A stretch of 61,706 nucleotides of DNA, filler included, from Basidiobolus ranarum (taxonomy: Eukaryota), in NCBI GenBank assembly GCA_040143965.1. It is 7 parts of 7 records of this genome, joined end to end, with 100 filler letters (N's around TTAATTAATTAA, not from the genome) between each part and the next. Parts side by side here need not be neighbours in the genome. Positions count along the whole stretch, not along the records: positions 52,991 to 61,706 come from JASJQH010007809.1; 6 more parts are not named here. The stretch is one strand, 5' to 3'. The notes beneath the pieces are model-generated. The model was not told the DNA's origin, made no database searches, and saw only the letters and a list, made by a program, of their open reading frames with translations. This document shows, piece by piece, positions 8,741 to 61,706 of the stretch. The position numbers and the translations under genes were made by a program. Numbering within the stretch: position 1 is the first letter of the stretch; each line of letters starts with the position of its first letter.

Positions 8741-8840
8741 NNNNNNNNNNNNNNNNNNNNNNNNNNNNNNNNNNNNNNNNNNNNTTAATTAATTAANNNN
8801 NNNNNNNNNNNNNNNNNNNNNNNNNNNNNNNNNNNNNNNN
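8741..8840. other. Artificial contig spacer
   Basis: N-run + TTAATTAATTAA (six-frame stop linker) + N-run, 100 bp. Identical spacers occur at 17579-17678, 26414-26513, 35245-35344, 44070-44169 and 52891-52990. Confidence 0.98.
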
Positions 8841-17480: not shown

Positions 17481-18127
17481 ACCAAAAGGTGAAATCTTTA
17501 TTTCAAACAAAACAATGAAGCCATAACTACTTTTGTAGTTTCTTAACTAATGTATGGAGATCTGGAGTATTTGTATGANNNNNNNNNNNNNNNNNNNNNN
17601 NNNNNNNNNNNNNNNNNNNNNNTTAATTAATTAANNNNNNNNNNNNNNNNNNNNNNNNNNNNNNNNNNNNNNNNNNNNAAGTCACTCAAAGTCTATGGCA
17701 GCAATATATATCTCATCACACATTGAGTACATGGATTGGGTACTAGACGTCTCTCTGCCATAATCACGCAGTGTTTAGTACTGAAGCCAATGGTAGCGGT
17801 ATCTTGCTTTTTAACTCCCTTGAACCAAATTTATGATCGACAAATAATATTATAGACAGCTAATACATTTGATCATGGACTAGCAAATGCCCATTATTGT
17901 ATTCTCAGTCTATTATTTATAACGATTATATAATCCCATGGTTTAGCCCTGGTTCACATTGGTAAACAGGAAGTCTTATGGATAATTTAGGGCCTACTAT
18001 TCGCTGATTGGTTAATTGTTGATGTGAAATGTAAATAGAGCCTTTATGATTAGATTGATTTCGAAAGCTTCGCGCATCATCAGTTACCACCCCTACATCG
18101 ACTTGCTCTAGCTTGCTACTTTTCTAT

Positions 18128-26413: not shown

Positions 26414-26513
26414 NNNNNNNNNNNNNNNNNNNNNNNNNNNNNNNNNNNNNNNNNNNNTTAATTAATTAANNNNNNNNNNNNNNNNNNNNNNNNNNNNNNN
26501 NNNNNNNNNNNNN

Positions 26514-35244: not shown

Positions 35245-35344
35245 NNNNNNNNNNNNNNNNNNNNNNNNNNNNNNNNNNNNNNNNNNNNTTAATTAATTAA
35301 NNNNNNNNNNNNNNNNNNNNNNNNNNNNNNNNNNNNNNNNNNNN

Positions 35345-44069: not shown

Positions 44070-45816
44070 NNNNNNNNNNNNNNNNNNNNNNNNNNNNNNN
44101 NNNNNNNNNNNNNTTAATTAATTAANNNNNNNNNNNNNNNNNNNNNNNNNNNNNNNNNNNNNNNNNNNNAAGAAATAAAATGGCGCGAGTATACAACCTA
44201 ACGAAAATCCATTCAAAAGTAACCGGTAATTTATCCCCCAAAAGCCCTGAATTGTAGGAATACCACGACAATATATCCGTAAAGGCTATAGTTGGGGATG
44301 TTGTCAGTTTACCTGGGTTGCATTTCTCACAAATAATCTCACAAATGATGATATGAAATTGTTCGCTGCCATAGATGCTATGGATATTGGTCACATATCC
44401 TTCGTACTACGTTTATGTCACCAGAAACAAACAGCAAAGAATGGCAACTGCTTGAAGATCGATCGGTAGCTAATAGCGTAGCTTAAATGGGTTTTCGATG
44501 TGGAGATAGTTTGAAGTAGAGAGTACTTGAGTCATGGAGTGAGTCACAATAGCTGGGTATAAATCAGCGTCCGTAGAATCTCTGCGGACATCTTAGCACT
44601 CAGCTAAAGTGGGCGATTTGCAAGTTTCCATGAATTATGATATGGTCGCACCCACCCCCACTCTTATTATGGAAGACTAGTAGAAAGCAATTACTAATCA
44701 TCCGCCAAATCTACCAAAAACCTGTAAGGTAAATTACCTGAAAGTATCATAGAAACTATTATGGTCTGTGAAACATTGATACCGACTTCAGGAGTGGCGA
44801 ATATTTTCGTCAGACGTCATCATAAATCACCATCGATTGAGTGCTTTCGTAACTGCTAAAGGAGTTGATCAAACTACCTTAGGGATGCCAAGTTACTTGC
44901 TTTGGCCAATGCTTGATTTGGTCCTGAGTTCTATTACTTGAACTAGTAAAAGTACTTGTCCCTGGAATACTGAGCCGTAATCGGCCGTGGTTCGGCTTAT
45001 TCGTTTCGGATTGATGACCCCTGGATACCTGTTCATTTATGCTCCAATAGGGATTTCAACTTTTGGTTTGGAACACCTCAAATCAACTTCCCTTGACGAG
45101 CGAACGTGTGTGCGAACCCAAGAGGTCATTGATCAAAGCCCAGGTGGGCGAGAGAGTATTGGCATATTCTATGCGGTCCTTGTAGTCATATAGAATATTA
45201 GTAGATAGCGCCCCGACATCGCCAAGCATCTTGTCTAGGATGAAGTAAAGCATGACTTGAACTCAGTTTTATGCTTTGATGCTATTTCTCCGACTTAACC
45301 CCCCTTCCCTTTCCCCATTAACATTTTCATGCTACAGAAGTAGATCGACTTAAAATTTATCCATGTACTAAGTCTAATCGCTGCCTGTCTGCTCCCCACG
45401 TAGCCGCTCTCATTTTATTTGTTGCATGTTGATTGGTTCTAAAATATATTTGATAAAGCTTACGATTTATAAATTCAGGCTGATTACTAATGCACCCTAG
45501 ATCTCTATCATCGTTTAATACATATAATATATATGAAAGTACTGTGCCATAGGTAAGAATCTAGGGTTACTATTTTGGTAAAAAACAATATTGAGTATGA
45601 TTGTGATCTATTTTTTGAAAACCCGGTTGGTCTTAGTAATTGACATTGGTGGTAGAAAACTAGATATATAGTGGCCCATATCTTTCACCTTTCATCTGTC
45701 CTTAACATTCTCATTACCTTTGATCGGTACATACGCAGTCCTCACACCCCTTGGTTCTCCTTCAATAACTTTTAACACATTGTTTCCTGTACCCTTTTCT
45801 CACTATAATTGACACA

Positions 45817-48424
45817 ATGCCTAACGAACAATTGATGAATTTCCCCAACTCTCGGGCTGAGCAATATACTGGCACACGATCATTCATGCCTACTAAGGAA
45901 GCCATCGTAACCATGAACCTCAAAGTAGAAGATGCCAAGGAGAAACGTCAAGAAATATGGAGAGCTTTTAATGATACTTTCACATTGTATGAAGACCTAT
46001 TCGATTCTATAACTGATAAAGCACACTACATGCGCGCCGACCCGCTCAGACATCCATTGATTTTCTACCTGGGTCACAGCGCTGCCTTTTACATTAACAA
46101 ACTTGTATTAGCCAAGATCCTCAAGTATAATGAACGCATTGATCCAAGTCTAGAATCCCTGGTATCAGTTGGAGTGGACGAAATGTCTTGGTAAGTTTAG
46201 CCTGAGGATCCACATTGTGAAGAAAAATCATTAAGCTTTTTTAATTATATATAGGGATGATCTCCTTTCTGATGACTATCCTTGGCCTGCTTTGGAGAAT
46301 GTACGTACTTTCCGCTCACAAGTTCGAAAATTAATCTCCGAAGTGATCCTTGAAAGACTCCCTTTGAACGACCATACTGTCATCAATTGGGAACATCCAT
46401 TTTGGCCGATCGTACTTGCGATAGAGCATGAACGCATTCATTTGGAGACCTCTTCCGTACTCATACGCCATCTCCCTCTCACGGCCCTTAATCTAAATTA
46501 TAATTCTTTCTTTAAGCAAGATTGTAAAGAATGGGATTCTATCAATCATTCAGAAGCAGATGTTGCATTTGTTCAGGTTCCAGCGGGTGATATCACTATC
46601 GGTCGTCCTATTAGTTCTGATAAGGCACGTTCTAAAGAGCACCTCGAAAATTTTGTTAACATCTATGGTTGGGATAACGAATATGGTCACCGCGCATCAT
46701 CGGTCCAGAGTTTTTTAGCGGGAGAAAAGTTAATCTCCAATGCTGACTTTTATCAATTTGTTCAAGATGGTGGTTACCACAAGGAAGAATACTGGTCTGA
46801 AGAAGGTTGGCATTGGGTCCAATATATCAAACCTGAAACACCTAGATTTTGGATAAAGAAAAGTGATGGTTCATATGTGCTGAGAAATATGCTAGAAGAG
46901 ACATCTACAATGCCTTGGAATTGGCCGGTAGAAACCAATGCTTTAGAAGCGAATGCCTACTGTCGTTGGTATAGTAAAAAATACGGCAAGCTTACTCGGT
47001 TACCCACTGAAGAAGAGTATAACCAAATGCTTCGATACGCCTTAGAACAGGAGCATCAGACTACCGGTTCCAATCCTATCGGACCTGATCATATGTTGAA
47101 TAATTGTAACATTGGTCTCCAAAAATCCACTTCCTCATGCCCAGTTGACAAATTCCGTACGGGGCCATTCTATGACGTTATGGGAAATGTTTGGCAATGG
47201 ACAAGAACTTGCATGTATCCATTTGCTGATTTTGATGTTCATCCGTTATATGATGATTTTACTGCACCCACTTTCGATGACCAGCATAATTTAATCAAAG
47301 GTGGCTCTTGGGCCTCCACTGGTAACGAGGCTACAATCTACTGCCGTTATGCATTCCGTCGTCATTTTTATCAACATGCTGGCTTCCGAGTTATTCAACC
47401 AATAGACCAAGAGAGCATTGGCATGAGTGAATCTAAACAAGAGCCCGACTTTGAGCCCAAAAATATATTCGTTACCGGAAATGGCCAAGAAACTTCTGGA
47501 AACCCATATGAAACTGATGTTCAAGTTAACCGTTATTGTGAAGGACATTACGGACCTCAGCCTCCTTTCCCTGATGTTCAATCTTTCCAAGCAGTTTCTG
47601 CTCGCATATGTGAGGCATTAATGCGTGGTTCTGAATTTGCTGAGTTAGACAATCAAGAGCAAATTCGCGCTTTAGACCTTGGGTGTGCAACTGGTCGATC
47701 CACTTTCGAGATGTCACATTACTTTGACCAGGTGGTAGGTGTAGACTTGTCAGCTAGGTTCATCCAAGTAGGTTATCAACTAGCCCAGCGAGGAAGTATT
47801 CGGTATAGCATGCCAATTGAAGGAGAGATTCACACTCTTCGTGAAGTAGTACTTGGCTCTAAAGACCTTCCATTGGATGGTTCAGATGGACTGAAATTAG
47901 TTGAACAACTCTTTGGCCCTCAGCCAATCGATCAAAGTCCGAATGATTGTAATGCGTTGGCAGATAAAGTGGTATTTCTCCAGGGAGATGCATGCAATCT
48001 GAACGCCACCAACCCAGTGTACTTCAACTTTCATTGTATTTTGGCAGCTAATATCATAGATCGCCTTTACAACCCTATTTCCTTCCTTGAAGCCATTCAT
48101 ACACGAATTGTTCCTGGCGGATTCCTTGTTATCTTATCACCCAACACATGGCTCCCTGATTTCACCCCACAAGAAAATTGGATCGGTGGTAAAAAGGTGG
48201 ATGGTGAAAACGTCACCACACGTGATGGGCTTGAACAAGTATTAAGCCCATGGTTTGATATTGTTCATATCAAGCCACACAATCCAGAATTCAAGGATGT
48301 ATTCGGAGGAAACAGTCCAGACGGAGAACTAGATTCATTCCATGTTCCATTTGTACTCCGTGAAACCCAACGCAAGTACGAATTTATCTTTGCTGAATGT
48401 ACCATCTGGAAAAAACGAGTTTAA
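45817..48424 (+). CDS. ovoA: 5-histidylcysteine sulfoxide synthase / methyltransferase OvoA (ovothiol biosynthesis)
   Basis: Two exons (45817-46190, 46255-48424; 64-nt GT-AG intron) give 847 aa. DinB-like domain: RHPLIFYLGHSAAFYINKL, GVDEMSWDDL, IEHERIHLETSSVLIR. FGE-sulfatase domain: YGWDNEYG, GNVWQWT, YDDFTAPTFDDQHNLIKGGSW, RYAFRRHFYQHAGFR. C-terminal SAM methyltransferase: ALDLGCATGR, GVDLSARFI, FLQGDACNL, FVLRETQRKY. Confidence 0.93.
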
Positions 48425-52890: not shown

Positions 52891-52990
52891 NNNNNNNNNN
52901 NNNNNNNNNNNNNNNNNNNNNNNNNNNNNNNNNNTTAATTAATTAANNNNNNNNNNNNNNNNNNNNNNNNNNNNNNNNNNNNNNNNNNNN

Positions 52991-53045
52991 GGTAGAATTG
53001 AAGCTTCCCAAGCTTTAGCCCCGGGTTCGATTCCCGGACGGCGCA
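52991..53045 (+). tRNA. tRNA-Gly(CCC), 5'-truncated by contig edge
   Basis: Identical to the 3' 55 nt of the full copy at 57700-57770. Anticodon loop TTCCCAA, T loop GGTTCGATTCC. Confidence 0.9.
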
Positions 53046-53253
53046 TCGTTTTTATGTGACTTTTATATATGTTACCTCAATTTTCTTTTAGTTAGATTAG
53101 CTGGACTTAAGTTCTAAGCCTCATTTGTATGAAAATATTTATATATGGCTTGTAGTACGTTAAATTCAACCAATTTTAATATGTCAAAAGTAAATTGTAT
53201 TTAACAAGTAATATTTTTCGGTCAATTTACAAATCATAGACAATAGCTACTCA

Positions 53254-53837
53254 CTATTGAAGGCGTTCAATATCTTCTTCATTTAAAACATTCTGCTCTA
53301 GCAATTCGTTAACACTTGGTCGGCGATTGATTTTGTTTTCTAACGAATCTTGTAACTGGCTCCGAGCTAACATCGCTTCTTGAGCTTGAAGTGCAGGAGC
53401 AGCTCTGGAGTCTATTATTAAGTATGGTTAAAATTTATGGTGACAGATCAATAGCGTAGAGATATTGATTAAACCTTTTAGAATATTATGTTGAACTAAA
53501 TCTTCTTTAGTGGGTCTATTTTGGATCTTATGGCCCAATTGATCATTAATTTTGGCACGCTCAAGATCTTTCATTGCTGCTTGAAGTGTGGGTGCAACAC
53601 TAGGGTCTAGAATAGCACGTAAGCTTGGGGGAGTAAGGAAAGGGGACAGACTCATTTAAACTCTACCTTTAATAATGTTTTTGTCGACTAACTCCTGGCT
53701 TCCAGGACGATTAGCAAGGAATTGCTCCAACTTCTGTTGATTATCTGTCGGGGATAAGAGCAAATACAAATAGCAAATCATCAATAACAAGTACGAAACA
53801 GTAGAGTGTGAATATCAACCAAGAATGACCTACCCAT
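53254..53837 (-). CDS. RPEL-repeat protein
   Basis: Three RPEL repeats across 4 exons: LEQFLANRPGSQELVDKNII, LGHKIQNRPTKEDLVQHNIL and LENKINRRPSVNELLEQNVL. Confidence 0.88.
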
Positions 53838-54936
53838 TATGATATGTAGTTCAGGTTAGGTTAGTTGAGTTAAGCTGTCTGTCTTGTTCGCTTTTATTGC
53901 TTAAGCAAGAGGAGATTGGAGGAATCGATGAGATAGAAAGGCACGTCTGAGAGGTCTTGATTGACGCCGAAGGTGATTTATATGATTTATACGCTGAATG
54001 CAATCCTAACATCCATTCATTATATTAAATATCCTCTTCACCAATCACAATTGGGTAACGTCTGATGGTAACGGTCACATGGATAAGGGGCAGGACTCGA
54101 AGTGCTGGGGAAGGTCGATTGTAGCACTGATGATATTAGGGTATTTTCGTATTGCTTTGATTGCCGTATATTAATGCATTTGGTGCTACAAATCAAACAT
54201 TCGTGACTTGTTACGATTTCATTACGTAGTGTTTTTAAGAGACCAGCTTTCGGATTTAGTCGAGTCAGGGTTAGGGTTGCATGAGCTACTGCATGTAGAT
54301 CTCTAGTTCCACAGGGTTAGAGGTTAATACGTAATGCAATCCTCCAACCTAGACCCTTATTCTTCATGTTTGGCGCTACCCAGCAATTTAAACATAGTCA
54401 GCTTTGAAAAACGCGAGAATTACGTATTACGTATCGATTCGTGGTATTTACCTCGACTTGCTGCGAAGAAATCATCGATTTTGTTGATAATATATGATTG
54501 GATCCTATGGACCCTAGCGCATTCATGAGCTTAAAGTTTACTAATTGGCATAGTTTCGGAGCTTTATAAGTATATAGATATATAAACATTCCCTAATTGT
54601 TTAATCCGATTACGTTGTTTGGGAAATCACGTGAACTGACGATATACCATTTGATTTACGCCTATTTCCATCAGATATGTATTCATCATATCTATTGTTG
54701 GACAGATTTCTCCATTTTTTAAGTAGATTTCGCTAATTGTTACTGGTTGTCAGTTTGGGCCACTGAAGACACATTCCTCTTTGAATTGTACCGAGTGTTC
54801 TTGTACTTTACTCTTATTTCTTTAAACGCGTACGAGTTGCTGGAAGTATTTATTATAGACAGGTAGATTCTCTGTGAGCCAAAGCTTACTATTTTTATAT
54901 TTAATAACCTCTATTTTCCCTCACTTAGCTACAATA

Positions 54937-56152
54937 ATGAGAGTAATCCCTGTACCTGTCTTAGAAGACAACTACTCGTATTTGATTATAGATGATAAAA
55001 CCGGCGAAGGTAAAAAATACACTACACCAACCATACAAGTTCGATGTTTTAAATATTTCTCGGCTTTCAATATTTAGCTATAGCTGTAGATCCTGCTGAG
55101 CCATCCAAGGTTCTTCAAGCAGCTGCACAAGCGGGCGTCAACATAAAAAGCGTGTTTACTACCCATCACCATTGGTATTCCAAACATTACCAAGTATTTT
55201 TTTTACTATAAAACCATTCTAACCAGCAGTTCTGTTGGGTAGGGACCACGCGGGTGGTAATGTAGAGCTATTGACAATCAAACCAGGACTTCTAATTTAC
55301 GGTGCTGATGCACGTATCCCTCAAATCAACTATGTAGTGAAGAGTAATGAAGAATTTCAGGTTATTTATTAGAAAACTTACTTTTAAGTGAGAAACCACA
55401 AGTTAACTTTCGACACTATATTTCTCTACAATAGGTGGGTTCACTAACTGTGAAAGGGTTGCTCACAGTCGGACATACTAAAGGCAGCGTATCATATTTG
55501 ATTCAAGATGGTAATGAAACAGCGGTATTTACTGGAGATACGTTATTTGTTGGTTAGTATTGATTTTTCACTCTCAATGTCGGTTCTGTTCACTATTTAC
55601 TTAGAATCTATATTAGCTGGTTGTGGGAAATTCTTTGAGGGAACAGCTGAAGATATGTACAATTCATTATGCAACGTTTTGGCCTCATTGCCTCCAGAAA
55701 CAAAAGTATACTGCGGTCATGAGTATACGCGGGCGAACCTTGGGGTAAAGGCAACTTTCCGAATGTAAATCTATCGAGTTTCACGTTTTAACTCAGTCCA
55801 TGATTTTACTAGTTTGCACTCACTATCGAGCCTAATAACACTGCTCTAATGGTAAGATGATTGTTATGTTGGATCTTTGGAAGGTTTGAAACTAACCTTT
55901 TTTATAGAATAAAATCGCCTGGTGCCAATCAAATCTCATTACAGTTCCAAGTACAATCGGAGAGGAATTGATGTATAACCCATTCATGCGAGTTCAGTAA
56001 GTATACTTGGTTACCATTTAGCAGATGGTTTTTGGCTAACAAAGGTGACCAACTCTCTTTACAGTGAGCCCGTAATTCAGCAACATGTGGGCTCGAATAA
56101 TCCAATTGATGTAATGTCTACTTTACGAGAGATGAAGAATAACTTTCAATAA
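54937..56152 (+). CDS. GLO2: Hydroxyacylglutathione hydrolase (glyoxalase II)
   Basis: [48 protein letters not shown] and [16 protein letters not shown], with 7 introns. An upstream exon is possible. Confidence 0.95.
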
Positions 56153-56947
56153 TTATGTTAGTTAAAGTCATTGCTTCATTATATATATATATTCGCTCAT
56201 GAAGCTACATCTCCCTATTCTCACCAAAACTTTTATTTATAAATCATCGAATTAGAATATTTCCCTTTACTGATATAATCTTCAACTCTTTATTTTCAAG
56301 CATCATTACAATCCCTTCAATTTATCATGATTTTAAGGGATAATGTATCATTCGAAAATCGAATCTGAAACTTGCCTCCATTGTACTAATAATGTTATAT
56401 ACTTGCTTTTAAATTGGCAATATGGAGATGTAAGACATCATTGGGCTCAGTATGATACCAATTTTAATTGTTATAATGATACCCAACCCAAATGAACATA
56501 GTTAAATCAATATTTTGCAGTCAGTATGGCTGGGACAAACTTTGGTGGTTGACTTTCTCAGCTCTATATAAGAACTGTTATTTTATAAGGTTATGATATG
56601 AAGTAAAAGATAACATTCAAGCTCATATTTAAGCTTCTATTTCCAACTTTTATCGCTGCTTTTCTTCGTAGCTTAATATATTCACTTAAGTACTTCAACG
56701 CTTTTTCACCTTTGGTCTGGATAGCAAGTGAGAAGGAAAAATATAGTATTTGAGTCTCAATTACTATTGATTCACTATATCTCTGCGAAGCTTTAGGAAT
56801 ACCTCATCTTTTGACTTGATAAAATTTGTCCATGAAACAAATTATTTTTCAAGTATTATGTGATATGCATCGTCAAGGTCAACTTCTCTTCGTAACTCAA
56901 CATAGACAAGTGGTTTGTAAGGTCGAGAAACAAACAAAAAGATATTT

Positions 56948-57040
56948 TTCAAGCTCATATTTGTGATTCTATAGTTCGTTTTATCATCACCAACCCGAAG
57001 GTCTGAGAGTGGTGCATGAATGTTAATGTCATCGCTTGAA
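56948..57040 (-). ncRNA. Box C/D snoRNA, snR55/SNORD33-like (copy 1)
   Basis: Terminal stem TTCAAGC/GCTTGAA, C-like box GCGATGA, guide CATGCACCAC, D' CAGA, UUCG hairpin, C' GTGATGA and D-like ATGA. The guide is antisense to the conserved 18S sequence GUGGUGCAUG; the D'+5 rule points to the U equivalent to yeast Um1269. Confidence 0.8.
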
Positions 57041-57045
57041 GTTTT

Positions 57046-57120
57046 AATCGCAACAGGGATTCGAACCCTGACCTTAGGGAGCCCACTGGATTGTAGGTAA
57101 CCACTAAGCCATATGCAATT
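57046..57120 (-). ncRNA. tRNA-like Pol III leader (copy 1)
   Basis: A box TGGCTTAGTGG, T arm/B box CAGGG-TTCGAAT-CCCTG and acceptor-like stem AATTGCA/TGCGATT. No canonical D-stem 3' strand or anticodon arm. Confidence 0.7.
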
Positions 57121-57699
57121 TCTGGAATATTTTGTAATTCAAATATTATTGGACATGCGATCTATATAATTGAAATTATGAAGAAAAATCTATCCTTCTA
57201 ATAATCTTGTATATCAATCATAACAAATGCTAAAGCCGCGTGATAGTTCACACTAATCAACAATAGAGTGAAAGCTGGATTATTTACCTAAATAATTTGA
57301 TACAGTAGAGACTAGCAACATTTTGGTTTAATGACATTTATTTGCATGAATTCGGCCATTGAAAATGCATTACATCAGTTATGAGAAGATGCACCCAGAA
57401 TGTCCGTATTAGATTTGTGACAGTAGTCACTTACACTTCATCTTATACGCTAACAACGAGTAATTCAATGAATATAATTTACATCGATTATGCCATGGCC
57501 ACCACAAAGTTAATGATTAGACATTTAAATGTTCAATCTCACATCTCACAATGTAAATTATTCCAATACTCCTGTAACAATATTTGTACCGATTGAATTT
57601 ATGCTTTACTTGTTCAAAAACACTTTTGCTAAGCAATAGCAACAATATGATTAACCTATCAAGGATATAAGTGTATTTTCATGAAAATGAAAATATATC

Positions 57700-57770
57700 T
57701 GCGCCGTCCGGGAATCGAACCCGGGGCTAAAGCTTGGGAAGCTTCAATTCTACCACTGTACTAACGGCGC
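57700..57770 (-). tRNA. tRNA-Gly(CCC)
   Basis: GCGCCGTTAGTACAGTGGTAGAATTGAAGCTTCCCAAGCTTTAGCCCCGGGTTCGATTCCCGGACGGCGCA folds as a cloverleaf with anticodon CCC. Confidence 0.95.
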
Positions 57771-57910
57771 TTTTATATTTTGTAAAATCATACCCAACTT
57801 CTCTATCTTACTTCTTTTACAAACTAGAATTAGTACATTAATTTCTGACTTTACCAATACGTAATTTAATAATTGTAATTACTTATATGACTTCTGGTTC
57901 TTTGATGATA

Positions 57911-58089
57911 GATTGTGGCACGAGTTATTGCGCTTCTCCCCATCAATAGACACGAAGGCCTGATTTCAGAGAGAACCGCACCCAACCCATTCCAAATGTT
58001 TCAATCTTCAATTTATATACGGCCTAGTGCTTAATCGACGGACTCCTACGCGGAGCCATCATCGCAAAGGTGCTTTTAGATAAATTGTG
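57911..58089 (-). ncRNA. Box H/ACA snoRNA, snR10/SNORA21-like (copy 1)
   Basis: Two hairpins, an H-like hinge AGATTGAAAC and ACA 3 nt from the end. The 3' pocket UGGGUG/CAAU fits LSU AUUG-UU-CACCCA (yeast Psi2923), 14 nt from ACA. The 5' pocket AAAAGC/CGU fits ACG-UN-GCUUUU. Confidence 0.78.
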
Positions 58090-58610
58090 ATAAATGCGTT
58101 GTAAGTTTTTAATTCTCACTTCACGGTGATATTTATGGTAGAAAATGATTATATGGGATTTTTCCCGATGAAATTTTTCCAAAATTTTGTTCCATAATTG
58201 ACCAAGTTCTATTTTCACAAATTTATGGACTATGTATTCCAAAATCCTACTGGTCAAATCTAATTTGTTGGAAGATAAACTTCAATGGTTGGATCATATA
58301 TGATAGAACCATTCTCAGTATCGGTACTATCGGATAGTGTATGATTAAGAGAGCCTAATGTCCTTTATTCTTGAGTTGACAGCAATTTACAGTATGATAT
58401 TGGATTCTTACATATTGGTAATGTTAAATAAGGATTAACAATTTTAATCGAATCCTATTATATATATATTCACAGATCTCAAAAATATTATCACTATGTT
58501 CTTCATACTGTAACAACACCAAATCATTATCCATCGCTAAGACTAACGTTCCCTTGTAGCTCAATACAGACAAAATAAGTCTGTAATGCCGAGAAACAAG
58601 CTAAAAAATT

Positions 58611-58703
58611 TTCAAGCTCATAAGTTTGATTCTATAGTTCGTTTTATCATCACCGACCCGAAGGTCTGAGAGTGGTGCATGAAGATTAATATCATCGCTT
58701 GAA
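58611..58703 (-). ncRNA. Box C/D snoRNA, snR55/SNORD33-like (copy 2)
   Basis: Same boxes, guide and terminal stem as copy 1. A T6 run follows (A-run at 58603-58608 on the + strand). Confidence 0.8.
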
Positions 58704-58708
58704 GTTTT

Positions 58709-58782
58709 AATCACATCAGGGATTCGAACCCTGACCGCGGGTTATCATTTTATAGGTGGTAACCACTAAGCCATATGTGATT
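58709..58782 (-). ncRNA. tRNA-like Pol III leader (copy 2)
   Basis: A box and T arm identical to copy 1, with a perfect 8-bp stem AATCACAT/ATGTGATT. The central segment differs from copy 1. Confidence 0.7.
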
Positions 58783-59130
58783 GTCAATGAATTATATGTT
58801 AGGATGGATGTTATTTAAATAAATTAATTGTTGTAGCTTGACCACAAAGCCCAAGGAGCCAGCTTCAAATCTCTAGGTATCGAATATAGACGAACTACTC
58901 ATACTTGCCGGATTAGATTTCTGAATTGCGTAAGGGCTCACAATTCATTGCCTTCATCGACATCAAATATGCCAAGCAGTTCCACCTATTTATATAGAGA
59001 AATATTGCGCCGTCCAATAAAGATATTTTGTACATCCTTAATTCTTTCTTAATACAGTTTTGTGTGAGTATTTATTAAAATATGATAATAATCTTCATAA
59101 TTTGGATGATTTTGTTGTAATTTCATAAAT

Positions 59131-59310
59131 TATTGTGGCACGAGTTATTGCGCTTCTCCCCATCAATAGACACGAAGGCCTGATTTCAAAGAGAACCGCA
59201 CCCAACCCATTCCTATTTGTTTCAATCTTCAATTTATATACGGCCTAATGCTTAATCGACGGACTCCTACGCGGAGCCATCATCGCAAAGGTGCTTTTAG
59301 ATAAATTGTG
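59131..59310 (-). ncRNA. Box H/ACA snoRNA, snR10/SNORA21-like (copy 2)
   Basis: Near-identical to 57911-58089; the differences lie outside the guide pockets. Confidence 0.78.
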
Positions 59311-59458
59311 AAAAATGCGTTGTAAGGATTCATGTTTAGTTACGTTCCATATATACTAGTATACATTGGTCTGGGGAATGTGGGAAACAGGATGATATTC
59401 TTAGAATTATAACTAAACTAATTTATTTTGACTCAATGATTGGAATATGTCTGATGAT

Positions 59459-59896
59459 TTACTCATTTTTCTCTAAGATTGTAAAAGCCTCGATTGATTT
59501 TTCATGTGGTTCCAGTCGTAGATTTGTAACATTAGCACTCAAAAATAACTTGTCTTGGTGATTGCCGTCTTCATTTACCGCTTTGAAAGCAAAGAATTCA
59601 CCACCTGGATGGTCTACTTGGAATGTATACTTCATCCCATCAACAGTCAGAGTCGCTTTGTCTCCTTCTTTAGTGCATAAGAAGTTATCTTGAAATAAGA
59701 ATGTGGATTCTTCCGAATCCGTGAGTTCTAGCTCTCCATTTTCGTGGTAAGAAACATATTTTCCGCCATGGTGACGAACAAGTCCGGTTTTGGGAAGGGC
59801 TAGGACAACGCCAACAAACCATAATGTTCAATATAATTGGATCTAAACCACAGAACCAAAAATATTAGATTAGTACTTACTTGTAGCAGGATTCAT
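59459..59896 (-). pseudogene. Small secreted protein gene with an apparent 1-nt frameshift
   Basis: ATG at 59896, an intron of about 40 nt, then an open frame of about 120 codons (LWFVGVVLALPKTGLVRHHGGKYVSY...EKNE*). It joins in frame only if one A near 59828 is removed. Confidence 0.5.
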
Positions 59897-60100
59897 CTCA
59901 AGGCGTCGAATTTTATCAATTATAGAGCTAAAGAAAGTCTATCGGTATCTTATATATTTCCCTTGTCTACACTTACGTCAACTGTATTATGACGAAGGCA
60001 TTTGTGATGCAATTTGCAAATATTAATAAGGTGTAGCCTTCGTCAAATTTATGCATATTTATGGAATTGTTTGCACTCAAGTGGTTTTTTTACATCCAGA

Positions 60101-60120
60101 GGGTTAGGGTTAGGGTTAGG
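60101..60120 (+). repeat. Short interstitial (TTAGGG)n tract
   Basis: GGGTTAGGGTTAGGGTTAGG. Confidence 0.7.
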
Positions 60121-60948
60121 CATGAATTGAAGTGATTGATAATATATTACTCATAATGCATGATCCGTGACTTTTCTCGTGTGAGTTTAATCTGGGTATT
60201 GGCTTAATTTAAACAGATTAGTGGAAATATAATTGATTGGGAAACACAACCTCAACCTACTGTCTAGTAAAAGAACTCCATGACGTGGTGAATTCTGCCT
60301 CATAAGGTATTTGGATGATAGATACTAGTGTCCAAGTAAAACCTCTGTAATGAGATCTAAATGCCCAGCTTTTCACAGTGGGTTCATTGGTGTGGTGAGA
60401 TTTAGGCCTAACCCTACCATGGCTTTGTTACACTCACAGATTTTCCATTGTGTATGTATGAGAATCGCTTGGCTATATAAATAGGTGAATCGAAGGCGTA
60501 GACAGACACTTCACGAAATTCTTATCGCAGCTACTATATTGGGTTTTCCCGGAATGTTTTCAATTGGCGTATACATGTAGCTGATCAGTATAGACTTAAA
60601 ATGTAACAGTCATACTAGGGAAAGCTATATTGATCATTTGCCTGGTGGTGTATCATCAACAGCGTATTGTAAGCGGTGTGTGCAGCATCCGTAGCGTATC
60701 CTAACCCTAAATCTACATTTTTGAGATGAAAAAAATCGATAAACAGTTCCAAAGAGAACCGATCTTGAGTTTGACGACATCCATACGCCGAAAATGGAAT
60801 TTTTTAGATGGGTTAACGTGATCTTGTTTTGTCGGCCTCCATGATTCATGTATATACGCCCATGCTATCGTAATATCTGTATTGATTGGGGTTCTCATGA
60901 GTGATGTTATATAAGATGTATGAAGCTCGGACTAGCTTCCCGCTCTCG

Positions 60949-61706
60949 ATGAAAATGAAAAACATATATTCAATCTCTCTATTCTTGCTGGTCATAGGAA
61001 ATATTGCATTAAACGGCACATCAGCTCCTACTGGTAAGTGAAAAAATCCCCCTTTTTTGCTCAGATTTTAATCCATATTTCAGGAACAAGTGATCTTGAA
61101 AATATTTCAACTTTGGAGTCGACTTCCCGGCCTACCAGTAAAACTAATTTACCAGATAATCCCAATGAGACATCTACAATAAAAGACCTCACTAGTTTAT
61201 CAAAGTCAACTGAAGTAGATCCTTCAAATAGTGAAAATACAACGCCTGATACCACATCTGTGCCCTCGACAACCGATAAACCAACACCCACTACGATGGA
61301 ATCAACTTCAACGACTGAAGAATCGGCATCTACCACGAAAGAGCCCTCGACAACGCAGAAAACAACCTCACTCACATCGGAGCCTTCGACAACTCCAGAG
61401 CCAACTCAAACTCCATCAGAATCTTCGATTGAACAGCCCATGCCCACTACATCGGAGACATCGACAACTCAAGAGAAATCCCCTACTACGTTGGAGCCTT
61501 CAACAACCCAAGAACCAACTCCAACCGTATCAGAATCTTCGACTGAACAGTCCACGCCTACTACATCGGAGCCATCGACAACCCAGGAGACATCCCCTAC
61601 CACGTTGGAGCCTTCAACAACCCAAGAACCAACTCCAACCGCATCAGAATCTTCGACTGAACAGCCCACGTCCACTACATTAGAGCCATCGACAACCCAG
61701 GAGACA
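60949..61706 (+). CDS. Secreted mucin-like Ser/Thr/Glu/Pro-rich protein, 5' part
   Basis: Signal peptide MKMKNIYSISLFLLVIGNIALNG and intron 61034-61083, then an open STEP-rich frame running off the window end. Confidence 0.8.
61375..61706 (+). repeat. 114-bp (38-aa) coding tandem repeat, about 3 units
   Basis: TCAGAATCTTCGA recurs at 61416, 61530 and 61644. Confidence 0.9.

Follow-up and report, generated by a model that had tools for sequence, protein, structure and literature searches.

Two units on the minus strand of a Basidiobolus ranarum stretch (JASJQH010007809.1), referred to here as unit A (58782-58603) and unit B (57120-56936), each consist, in the 5' to 3' direction, of a tRNA-shaped leader (72 nt in A and 73 nt in B), a discriminator T with the linker AAAAC, a 93-nt box C/D small nucleolar RNA (snoRNA) and a terminal thymidine run (T6 in A and T5 in B). 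The A box, T arm and B box, acceptor-like stem, 5-nt linker, snoRNA and oligo-T run that an earlier sequence-only reading of this DNA had listed were all recovered in place in both minus-strand copies. Judged from the sequence, the units are a real, non-chance structure, and their anatomy fits the model put forward in that reading well. [quoted passage not shown] The window, i.e. the whole 61,706 nt of DNA analysed, comprises seven unlinked stretches, each of ∼8.7 kb, separated by six spacers (N44 + TTAATTAATTAA + N44 at 8741-8840, 17579-17678, 26414-26513, 35245-35344, 44070-44169 and 52891-52990). All arguments from neighbourhood are confined to 52991-61706 (8,716 nt), where both units are located.

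The anatomy of the two leaders was observed directly, and all features described here are on the minus strand. Leader A (58710..58781) comprises an acceptor 5' half, ATCACAT (58781-58775), an A box, TGGCTTAGTGG (58773-58763), a degenerate anticodon/variable region of 22 nt (58755-58734), a T arm (58733-58717, with the B box at 58730-58720) and an acceptor 3' half, ATGTGAT (58716-58710). Leader B (57047..57119) has the same layout, with acceptor halves ATTGCAT and TTGCGAT (57119-57113 and 57053-57047), the A box TGGCTTAGTGG at 57111-57101, a middle region of 23 nt (57093-57071) and a T arm at 57070-57054 (B box at 57067-57057). In both leaders the T arm reads CAGGG-TTCGAAT-CCCTG and contains the B box GGTTCGAATCC. 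The discriminator T and the linker AAAAC, at 58704..58709 in unit A and 57041..57046 in unit B, are the candidate RNase Z cleavage zone and are identical in the two units (6/6).

The promoter boxes were compared with the strings that we take to be the consensus of a type-2 Pol III promoter, namely an A box of TRGCNNAGTGG and a B box of GGTTCGANTCC, presumably 30-60 nt apart. Against these strings both units score 11/11 for the A box and 11/11 for the B box, and the boxes are separated by 32 nt in unit A and 33 nt in unit B. When the whole window was searched on either strand, TRGCNNAGTGG matched twice, and these matches are the A boxes of the two leaders. A 17-nt A-box word likewise has two matches in the window, a number reached in 0/100 shuffles. 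The 20-nt sequence GGTCAGGGTTCGAATCCCTG, which covers the B box and T arm at 58736-58717 and 57073-57054, is limited to these two window matches even when up to 3 mismatches are allowed, and two occurrences were again reached in 0/100 shuffles. The B-box pattern GGTTCRANNCC was found in both leaders and in the two tRNA-Gly genes of the window. The earlier statement that the arrangement is present twice is borne out as two matches, at the scale of one 8,716-nt stretch plus six unlinked stretches and not of a genome.

A candidate Pol III terminator follows each snoRNA. The T6 run of unit A (58603..58608) is 2 nt past the 3' stem of the snoRNA, and the T5 run of unit B (56936..56940) is 7 nt past it; as background, a T run of at least 5 begins within 15 nt of 3% of random window positions. 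Both units carry a terminal oligo-T run and none internally. TTTT is absent within the 170/171-nt units, which gives mild support given that it is also absent from 34% of random 172-nt stretches. Since genuine tRNA-Gly genes in this stretch terminate in T4-T5 runs, T5 should suffice as a terminator. The T run appears to have been maintained rather than merely inherited, because the flank surrounding it has diverged, with the qualification that the two copies are still not independent.

The leaders are tRNA-shaped but non-decoding, and are not tRNAs. The sequence-only reading had described them in these terms and had expected a pseudogene call or no call from a tRNA finder. With default settings, ARAGORN called neither leader and called only the tRNA-Gly(CCC) at 57770-57700. 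The Rfam tRNA model RF00005 (gathering 29) gave 16.7 bits for leader A (E=7) and no match for leader B up to E=10. When ARAGORN thresholds were relaxed, leader A was called only at -ps95 and leader B only at -ps85, and in the resulting drawings the acceptor stem and T arm were sound and the D stem weak, and the anticodon arm was broken in A or had a 6-nt loop in B. An above-threshold cloverleaf with a 5-bp anticodon stem and a 7-nt loop was found for neither.

Acceptor stem pairing amounts to 7/7 in copy A and 6/7 in copy B, and an extra A-T pair one step outward lengthens the helix in both, to 8/8 and 7/8, respectively. From A to B, a C-G pair becomes T-G, an A-T pair becomes G-C and the innermost T-A becomes T-T, breaking that pair. 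The earlier reading had named the first two changes, which are real, and had passed over the third; its claim that the stem covaries is only suggestive, since with 4 substitutions placed at random among these 14 positions at least 6/7 pairs survive in 8.7% of simulations. By manual count, 2/4 D stem pairs form in leader A and 3/4 in leader B. Unconstrained minimum free energy and centroid folds of both leaders contain the acceptor helix and the T hairpin, and in the 177/181-nt leader-snoRNA precursors the leader and the snoRNA fold into separate domains.

The pattern of conservation between the paralogues was observed segment by segment. Identity of A and B is 1/9 in the 9 nt upstream of the leader, 5/7 in the acceptor 5' half and 5/7 in the 3' half, 17/18 over positions 8-9 and the D arm/A box, 17/17 in the T arm, 88/95 in the snoRNA and 27/38 (71%) in the 3' flank. 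In the middle (anticodon) region it is 11/23 aligned bases with one gap, so the segment at the anticodon position is unrelated between the copies, as had been noted from the sequence. The identity of the 3' flank (71%) was used as a neutral proxy, and a generous one. Against this rate, the D arm/A box, T arm and linker pooled (40/41 identical) give P(≥40/41) = 1.5e-5, and the middle region gives P(≤11/23) = 0.016. Given these two probabilities, both box regions are taken to be constrained, and the segment between them to be unconstrained and probably rearranged. Two identical tracts split by unrelated sequence would be hard to reconcile with a single gene-conversion tract, which argues against that explanation.

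A decayed third copy of the leader and snoRNA was located at 56605..56800 (minus strand; repeat family D6), closest to unit B. The A box, T arm/B box, C box, guide and C' box have been lost from it, and the D box/3' stem and a T4 run are left. Compared with unit B, 3/17 positions of the T arm, 7/16 of the A-box region and 7/9 of the 9 nt upstream are identical. The boxes of the leader and those of the snoRNA have been lost together, and this co-decay is counted in favour of a Pol III unit.

Both snoRNAs contain C, D', C' and D boxes, a terminal stem and a D' guide. In snoRNA A (58611..58703, minus strand), which is closed by a 7-bp terminal stem (UUCAAGC/GCUUGAA), the C box GCGAUGA is at 58698-58692, the D' guide CAUGCACCACUCU at 58681-58669, the D' box CAGA at 58668-58665, a perfect C' box GUGAUGA at 58653-58647 and the D box AUGA at 58621-58618. 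In snoRNA B (56948..57040, minus strand; repeat family D3, 93% over 128 nt), the C box is at 57035-57029, the D' guide at 57018-57006, the D' box at 57005-57002, the C' box at 56990-56984 and the D box at 56958-56955. The 7 differences between the copies all fall outside the boxes and the 13-nt D' guide, which supports selection on the snoRNA. The fifth nucleotide upstream of the D' CAGA is predicted to pair with the U of a conserved 18S motif, GGUGGUGCAUG, which we take to be the snR55/U33 site. These features support assignment of the guide to the snR55/SNORD33 type.

The Rfam check suggested in the sequence-only reading upheld its description of an snR55-like snoRNA as regards the guide and fell short as regards the scores. 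SNORD33 (RF00133) gave 27.9 bits for snoRNA A and 30.6 bits for snoRNA B, and snoZ221_snoR21b (RF00300) gave 26.1 and 28.0 bits, respectively, all sub-threshold (gathering 44 for both models). The snoZ221_snoR21b alignment covers the whole RNA, and the guide stretch UCAUGCACCACUCU equals the RF00300 consensus exactly. The SNORD33 alignment was rejected as a definition of the snoRNA boundaries: it pairs GGUC of the leader with GACC after D', thereby taking the leader T arm as a false 5' stem, and lacks a C box; a parse over the full length, closed by UUCAAGC/GCUUGAA, fits better. A functional D-box guide was also considered and rejected, as 5 nt beside the D box differ between the copies.

Pol III transcription, a joint precursor and the identity of the cleaving enzyme are proposed here from this anatomy and from precedents. 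Each unit would be an independent RNA polymerase III gene for an snR55/SNORD33-type box C/D snoRNA that would direct 2'-O-methylation to the conserved U of 18S rRNA in the GGUGGUGCAUG region. The 72-73 nt leader, presumably of tRNA-gene descent, would hold the promoter internally, with its intact A and B boxes as the binding sites of TFIIIC. Transcription by Pol III would begin a few nucleotides ahead of the leader, continue across the leader, the linker and the snoRNA (∼175-180 nt) and terminate at the T6/T5 run. With loss of the anticodon arm the leader would have ceased to decode, and the coaxial helix of acceptor stem and T arm would have been retained as a tRNase Z substrate that RNase P could also use. 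An acceptor/T-arm helix is the minimal tRNase Z substrate. RNase Z would cleave past the discriminator, trimming of the 5' leader may fall to RNase P, and exonucleases would trim the remaining 4-5 nt back to the small nucleolar ribonucleoprotein.

Several observations weigh against this account. The evidence for constraint comes from two paralogues in one genome. Covariation in the acceptor stem is statistically weak, with two sequences and one doubly compensated pair, and the acceptor helix of copy B has a U-U mismatch at its inner end. Fold z-scores of the leaders are modest (-1.58 for leader A and -1.99 for leader B, compared with -3.33 for tRNA-Gly). In the snoRNA, the C box GCGAUGA and the D box AUGA are each one base off RUGAUGA and CUGA, and the Rfam scores given above are sub-threshold for both families. 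Since the A and B boxes are also the cores of the D and T loops, their conservation alone fails to separate a promoter role from that of a processing signal. An 11-nt word, TTACAAAATAT, is common to the upstream regions of leader B (57136-57126) and tRNA-Gly (57785-57775) on the minus strand, where it ends 6 and 4 nt before the respective gene (reached in 6/1000 shuffles, with 10 pairs tested). As a possible element of the Pol III start site or the TFIIIB region, this shared word speaks for a Pol III unit, and its absence from leader A speaks against one. A metagenome scan for a B box followed by GATGA and CATGCACCAC, a pattern that matches both window copies, yielded 0 loci and hence no independent lineage, and a further such scan, for the leader by itself with its middle left free, also yielded 0 loci. 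Finally, similarity between A and B runs on for ∼40-70 nt past the T run at ∼71%, at 58602-58560 and 56935-56900 (minus strand), with the pattern GTTTCTCG.C.TTACA.AC ... TTGTCT.T.TTGAG. This exceeds the similarity of other intergenic parts and would be unexpected if transcription stops at the terminator; it could reflect residual homology, a back-up terminator region or another element.

The two units, 1663 nt apart, are part of an old and larger tandem duplication, in which an H/ACA snoRNA and a tRNA-Gly gene were copied as well. Block 1 contains, in order, an H/ACA-type snoRNA (59133..59329, minus strand), a 10-nt tRNA-Gly 3' stub (59015-59006, minus strand; GGACGGCGCA) and unit A; block 2 contains an H/ACA-type snoRNA (57913..58108, minus strand), an intact tRNA-Gly(CCC) and unit B. 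Between these genes the blocks align poorly, with many indels. The genuine tRNA-Gly(CCC) of block 2 (57700..57770, minus strand), called by ARAGORN at default settings, scores 59.2 bits with the Rfam tRNA model. The block 1 stub corresponds in position to the complete tRNA-Gly gene of block 2, and the ancestral repeat is therefore read as H/ACA, tRNA-Gly, leader-C/D, with a later deletion of ∼60 nt of the tRNA in block 1. A second tRNA-Gly(CCC), on the plus strand at 52991-53046, has its 5' end cut by the start of the stretch and a T5 run behind it; as far as it can be read, it matches the 57770-57700 copy exactly. Units A and B are thus supported as products of tandem segmental duplication rather than of SINE-like insertion (SINE, short interspersed nuclear element).

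Both H/ACA-type genes match the Rfam family Afu_182, with 66.8 bits in block 1 (gathering 65) and 69.2 bits in block 2. The family is listed in Rfam merely as 'sRNA'; both copies have the appearance of H/ACA snoRNAs, with two hairpins and an ACA 3 nt from the 3' end, and match snR10 weakly (27 bits). They are 90-98% identical to each other despite their diverged flanks. No T run is present downstream of these genes, and TATA-like words occur ∼35-40 nt upstream, which suggests that they are transcribed by a different polymerase from units A and B.

The intergenic position of the cluster was observed directly. On one side is a same-strand gene for an annotated protein of 118 aa (stop at 59459), and on the other an opposite-strand, convergent glyoxalase II gene. 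An open reading frame (ORF) of 122 aa beside the cluster is 99% identical to the 118-aa B. ranarum hypothetical protein, and its comparison with PDB sequences gave a chance-level match only. The glyoxalase II exon at 55502-55768 matches human hydroxyacylglutathione hydrolase among PDB sequences (E=1.3e-14); Pfam searches with short exon fragments of the neighbourhood gave no matches. Because the cluster is located between these two genes, the snoRNA is outside any recognisable coding-gene intron. A location within an intron of a coding gene, which the sequence-only reading had named as fatal to its model, was rejected on this ground.

Further features of the window were recorded. A 442-aa cohesin (SCC3) fragment encoded in it shares 100% identity with a B. 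ranarum protein and 82% with its B. meristosporus counterpart. At 61038-61706 (plus strand), an open frame runs off the end of the window; its product is a tandem repeat rich in Thr, Ser, Pro and Glu, with repeat periods of 114 and 39/75 nt (families D1 and D2), and has a mucin-like or cell-wall-type appearance and no Pfam match. Another stretch contains, at 46889-48424 (plus strand), a 511-aa ORF with an FGE-sulfatase domain and a C-terminal methyltransferase domain (Pfam) that is unrelated to the units. We take its architecture to resemble that of the ovothiol synthase OvoA.

The main rival to a Pol III unit is that the leader acts as a processing signal only. Here, Pol II would read an H/ACA-tRNA-like-C/D precursor, and the tRNA mimic would be an RNase P/Z entry site that frees the 5' end of the snoRNA, in the manner of MALAT1-mascRNA or of the tRNA-like structure upstream of Haloferax 5S rRNA. 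The parts of the leader that have been kept (acceptor helix, T arm and the GG of the D loop) are those that make an RNase P/Z substrate, several snoRNAs share one orientation within 2.4 kb, and the A/B homology continues past the T run. The mascRNA model also matches leader B weakly (18.6 bits, E=2.3), and the Haloferax tRNA-like 5S arrangement provides a precedent (in the accessible part of PMC2566860). On the other side, T6/T5 follows directly after the snoRNA in both units and not after the H/ACA genes, and between the H/ACA gene and unit B there is a genuine Pol III tRNA-Gly gene, such genes having T runs of their own here. The sequence upstream of the leaders is unconserved (1/9). The A box has been retained despite a poor D stem, which fits a DNA promoter element better than an RNA helix; tRNase Z is not known to require a D arm. 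A role in processing only, which we regard as unlikely, is disfavoured by the T runs, by the poorly paired D stem and by the lack of conservation upstream.

A second rival is that the leader is an inert remnant: an old tRNA-snoRNA pair, or a tRNA pseudogene, would have been duplicated, the leader would be functionless, the snoRNA, if expressed, would use other signals, and the similarity would be residual or due to gene conversion. Rejection of both leaders by tRNA finders, the plainly dead third copy and a comparison limited to paralogues are all consistent with this. So is the tRNA-Gly stub in block 1, which is non-functional and still 10/10 identical, indicating that short identical islands can persist. 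Against these stand the 40/41 identity in two tracts around an unrelated segment of 22-23 nt, which departs from the flank rate as given above (P=1.5e-5), and the state of the snoRNA boxes and guide, intact throughout in both copies and lost in the dead one. An inert leader is accordingly judged improbable. A third rival, that the leader is the head of a multi-copy tRNA-derived SINE or of a retroposed snoRNA element, would account for a tRNA-derived head bearing A and B boxes, with a body and a T-rich end behind it, and is nevertheless very hard to credit: there are only 2 matches in the 61.7 kb of seven unlinked stretches, the copies are inside a tandem block that co-duplicated the H/ACA snoRNA and tRNA-Gly, our reading of the alignment shows neither a poly-A tail nor direct repeats bordering the units, a genuine guide snoRNA makes up the body, and the leader was found elsewhere in 0/2 metagenome scans.

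Genes for snoRNAs are expressed in several ways: from introns, from mono- or polycistronic Pol II transcripts and, rarely, from Pol III units. For fungi, yeast snR52 is the only Pol III snoRNA named in the papers cited here. If units A and B are indeed Pol III genes, a tRNA-shaped, non-decoding leader in a zoopagomycete fungus would link the plant dicistron and yeast snR52 cases and would show that a tRNA gene can be reduced to a promoter and a cleavage signal. The units would then represent a compact natural Pol III cassette (leader, RNase Z site and RNA of interest) of the kind used for guide RNA expression. They would also caution annotators that tRNA 'pseudogenes' beside snoRNAs may be functional promoters. 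Should other early-diverging fungal snoRNAs use such leaders, Pol III expression of snoRNAs would be an old, recurrent fungal strategy and not a lone yeast oddity.

Literature searches on Basidiobolus with snoRNA, and on tRNA-like leaders with snoRNA, RNase Z or Pol III, returned no description of this arrangement in this fungal group, and the accessible text of a paper on fungal snoRNAomes (PMC5824354) contains none of the terms 'Pol III', 'polymerase III' and 'Basidiobolus'. The novelty is more limited than the sequence-only reading suggested: degenerate tRNA-derived A/B-box leaders ahead of Pol III snoRNAs are known in Caenorhabditis elegans (PMC2527325) and an A/B-box leader in yeast snR52 (PMC2566860). 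The comparisons that follow draw on the accessible parts of the sources cited.

Heterologous Pol III dicistrons known in 2008 were tRNA-snoRNA genes in plants as well as tRNA-miRNA genes, to which Acker et al. added the Yarrowia tRNA-5S and tRNA-RUF70 genes (PMC2566860). Plant tRNA-snoRNA dicistrons include Arabidopsis tRNA-Gly(GCC)-snoR43 and rice tRNA-Met-snoRNA (via PMC2566860, PMC2527325 and PMC2780460), and this layout has been called exclusive to plants (Liu et al. 2009; PMC2780460). The Basidiobolus units resemble these genes in that an element of tRNA shape, containing A and B boxes, lies immediately 5' of a C/D snoRNA with a linker of a few nucleotides between them, and in having several paralogues; the snoRNA begins a few nucleotides past the 3' end of the tRNA-like element, shares its strand and is followed by a T run. 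Plant dicistrons are transcribed by Pol III from the tRNA promoter and the snoRNA is released by RNase Z, and the same is proposed, by analogy, for Basidiobolus. Unlike the plant genes, which have a working upstream tRNA, the Basidiobolus leaders have lost the anticodon arm, are rejected by tRNA finders and do not amount to functional tRNAs.

Among fungi, Yarrowia lipolytica tRNA-5S rRNA and tRNA-Trp-RUF70 are likewise Pol III fusions in which the leading tRNA provides the promoter and 5' processing (PMC2566860); there, however, a functional tRNA forms the leader, and what follows it is 5S rRNA or RUF70 and not a snoRNA. Saccharomyces cerevisiae SNR52 also has A and B boxes in a non-decoding leader before a C/D snoRNA, and removal of the leader is known there and proposed here. 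The A/B-box leaders of yeast snR52, RPR1 and ZOD1 reportedly could not be arranged as a tRNA-like structure (Acker et al. 2008; PMC2566860), whereas the Basidiobolus leaders are predicted to fold with an acceptor helix and T arm. Since the Basidiobolus guide is of the snR55/U33 type, the relation to SNR52 is that of an analogue and not of an orthologue. In its guide the Basidiobolus snoRNA resembles snR55, SNORD33 (U33) and Neurospora crassa CD34: the D' guide core is CAUGCACCAC, the predicted 18S U target is the same and the Rfam alignment covers the guide. Yeast snR55 is part of a Pol II polycistron. CD34, the snR55/U33 homologue of N. crassa with a D' guide for 18S-Um1265, is intronic (PMC2780460), unlike the intergenic Basidiobolus snoRNA.

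In C. elegans, the upstream motif UM2, with Box A-like and Box B-like sub-motifs, has been proposed as the remnant of a tRNA-snoRNA dicistron (Li et al. 2008; PMC2527325). Transcripts of these loci carry no cap and terminate at oligo-T; for 4/6 loci a joint UM2-snoRNA transcript was confirmed by rapid amplification of cDNA ends, and similar Drosophila cases are mentioned in the same work. The Basidiobolus units share with the UM2 loci a degenerate, apparently tRNA-derived A/B-box leader ahead of a snoRNA and an oligo-T end. They differ in that UM2 is found in an animal, in a large family as opposed to the one snoRNA here, and in that no acceptor/T-arm fold is claimed for UM2 in the accessible part of that paper. 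It is conceivable that the Basidiobolus units are an evolutionary intermediate between a plant tRNA-snoRNA dicistron and a yeast SNR52-type leader, in which an ex-tRNA would be selected only as a TFIIIC promoter and as a minihelix cut by tRNase Z/RNase P to release an snR55-type snoRNA; we hold this tentatively, with slightly more doubt than belief. The Basidiobolus units would function like the plant genes and like SNR52; they belong neither to the plant class nor with SNR52 orthologues, and are closest to the 'remnant' idea put forward for C. elegans; the feature that distinguishes them is a leader that retains the predicted acceptor/T-arm architecture of a tRNA.

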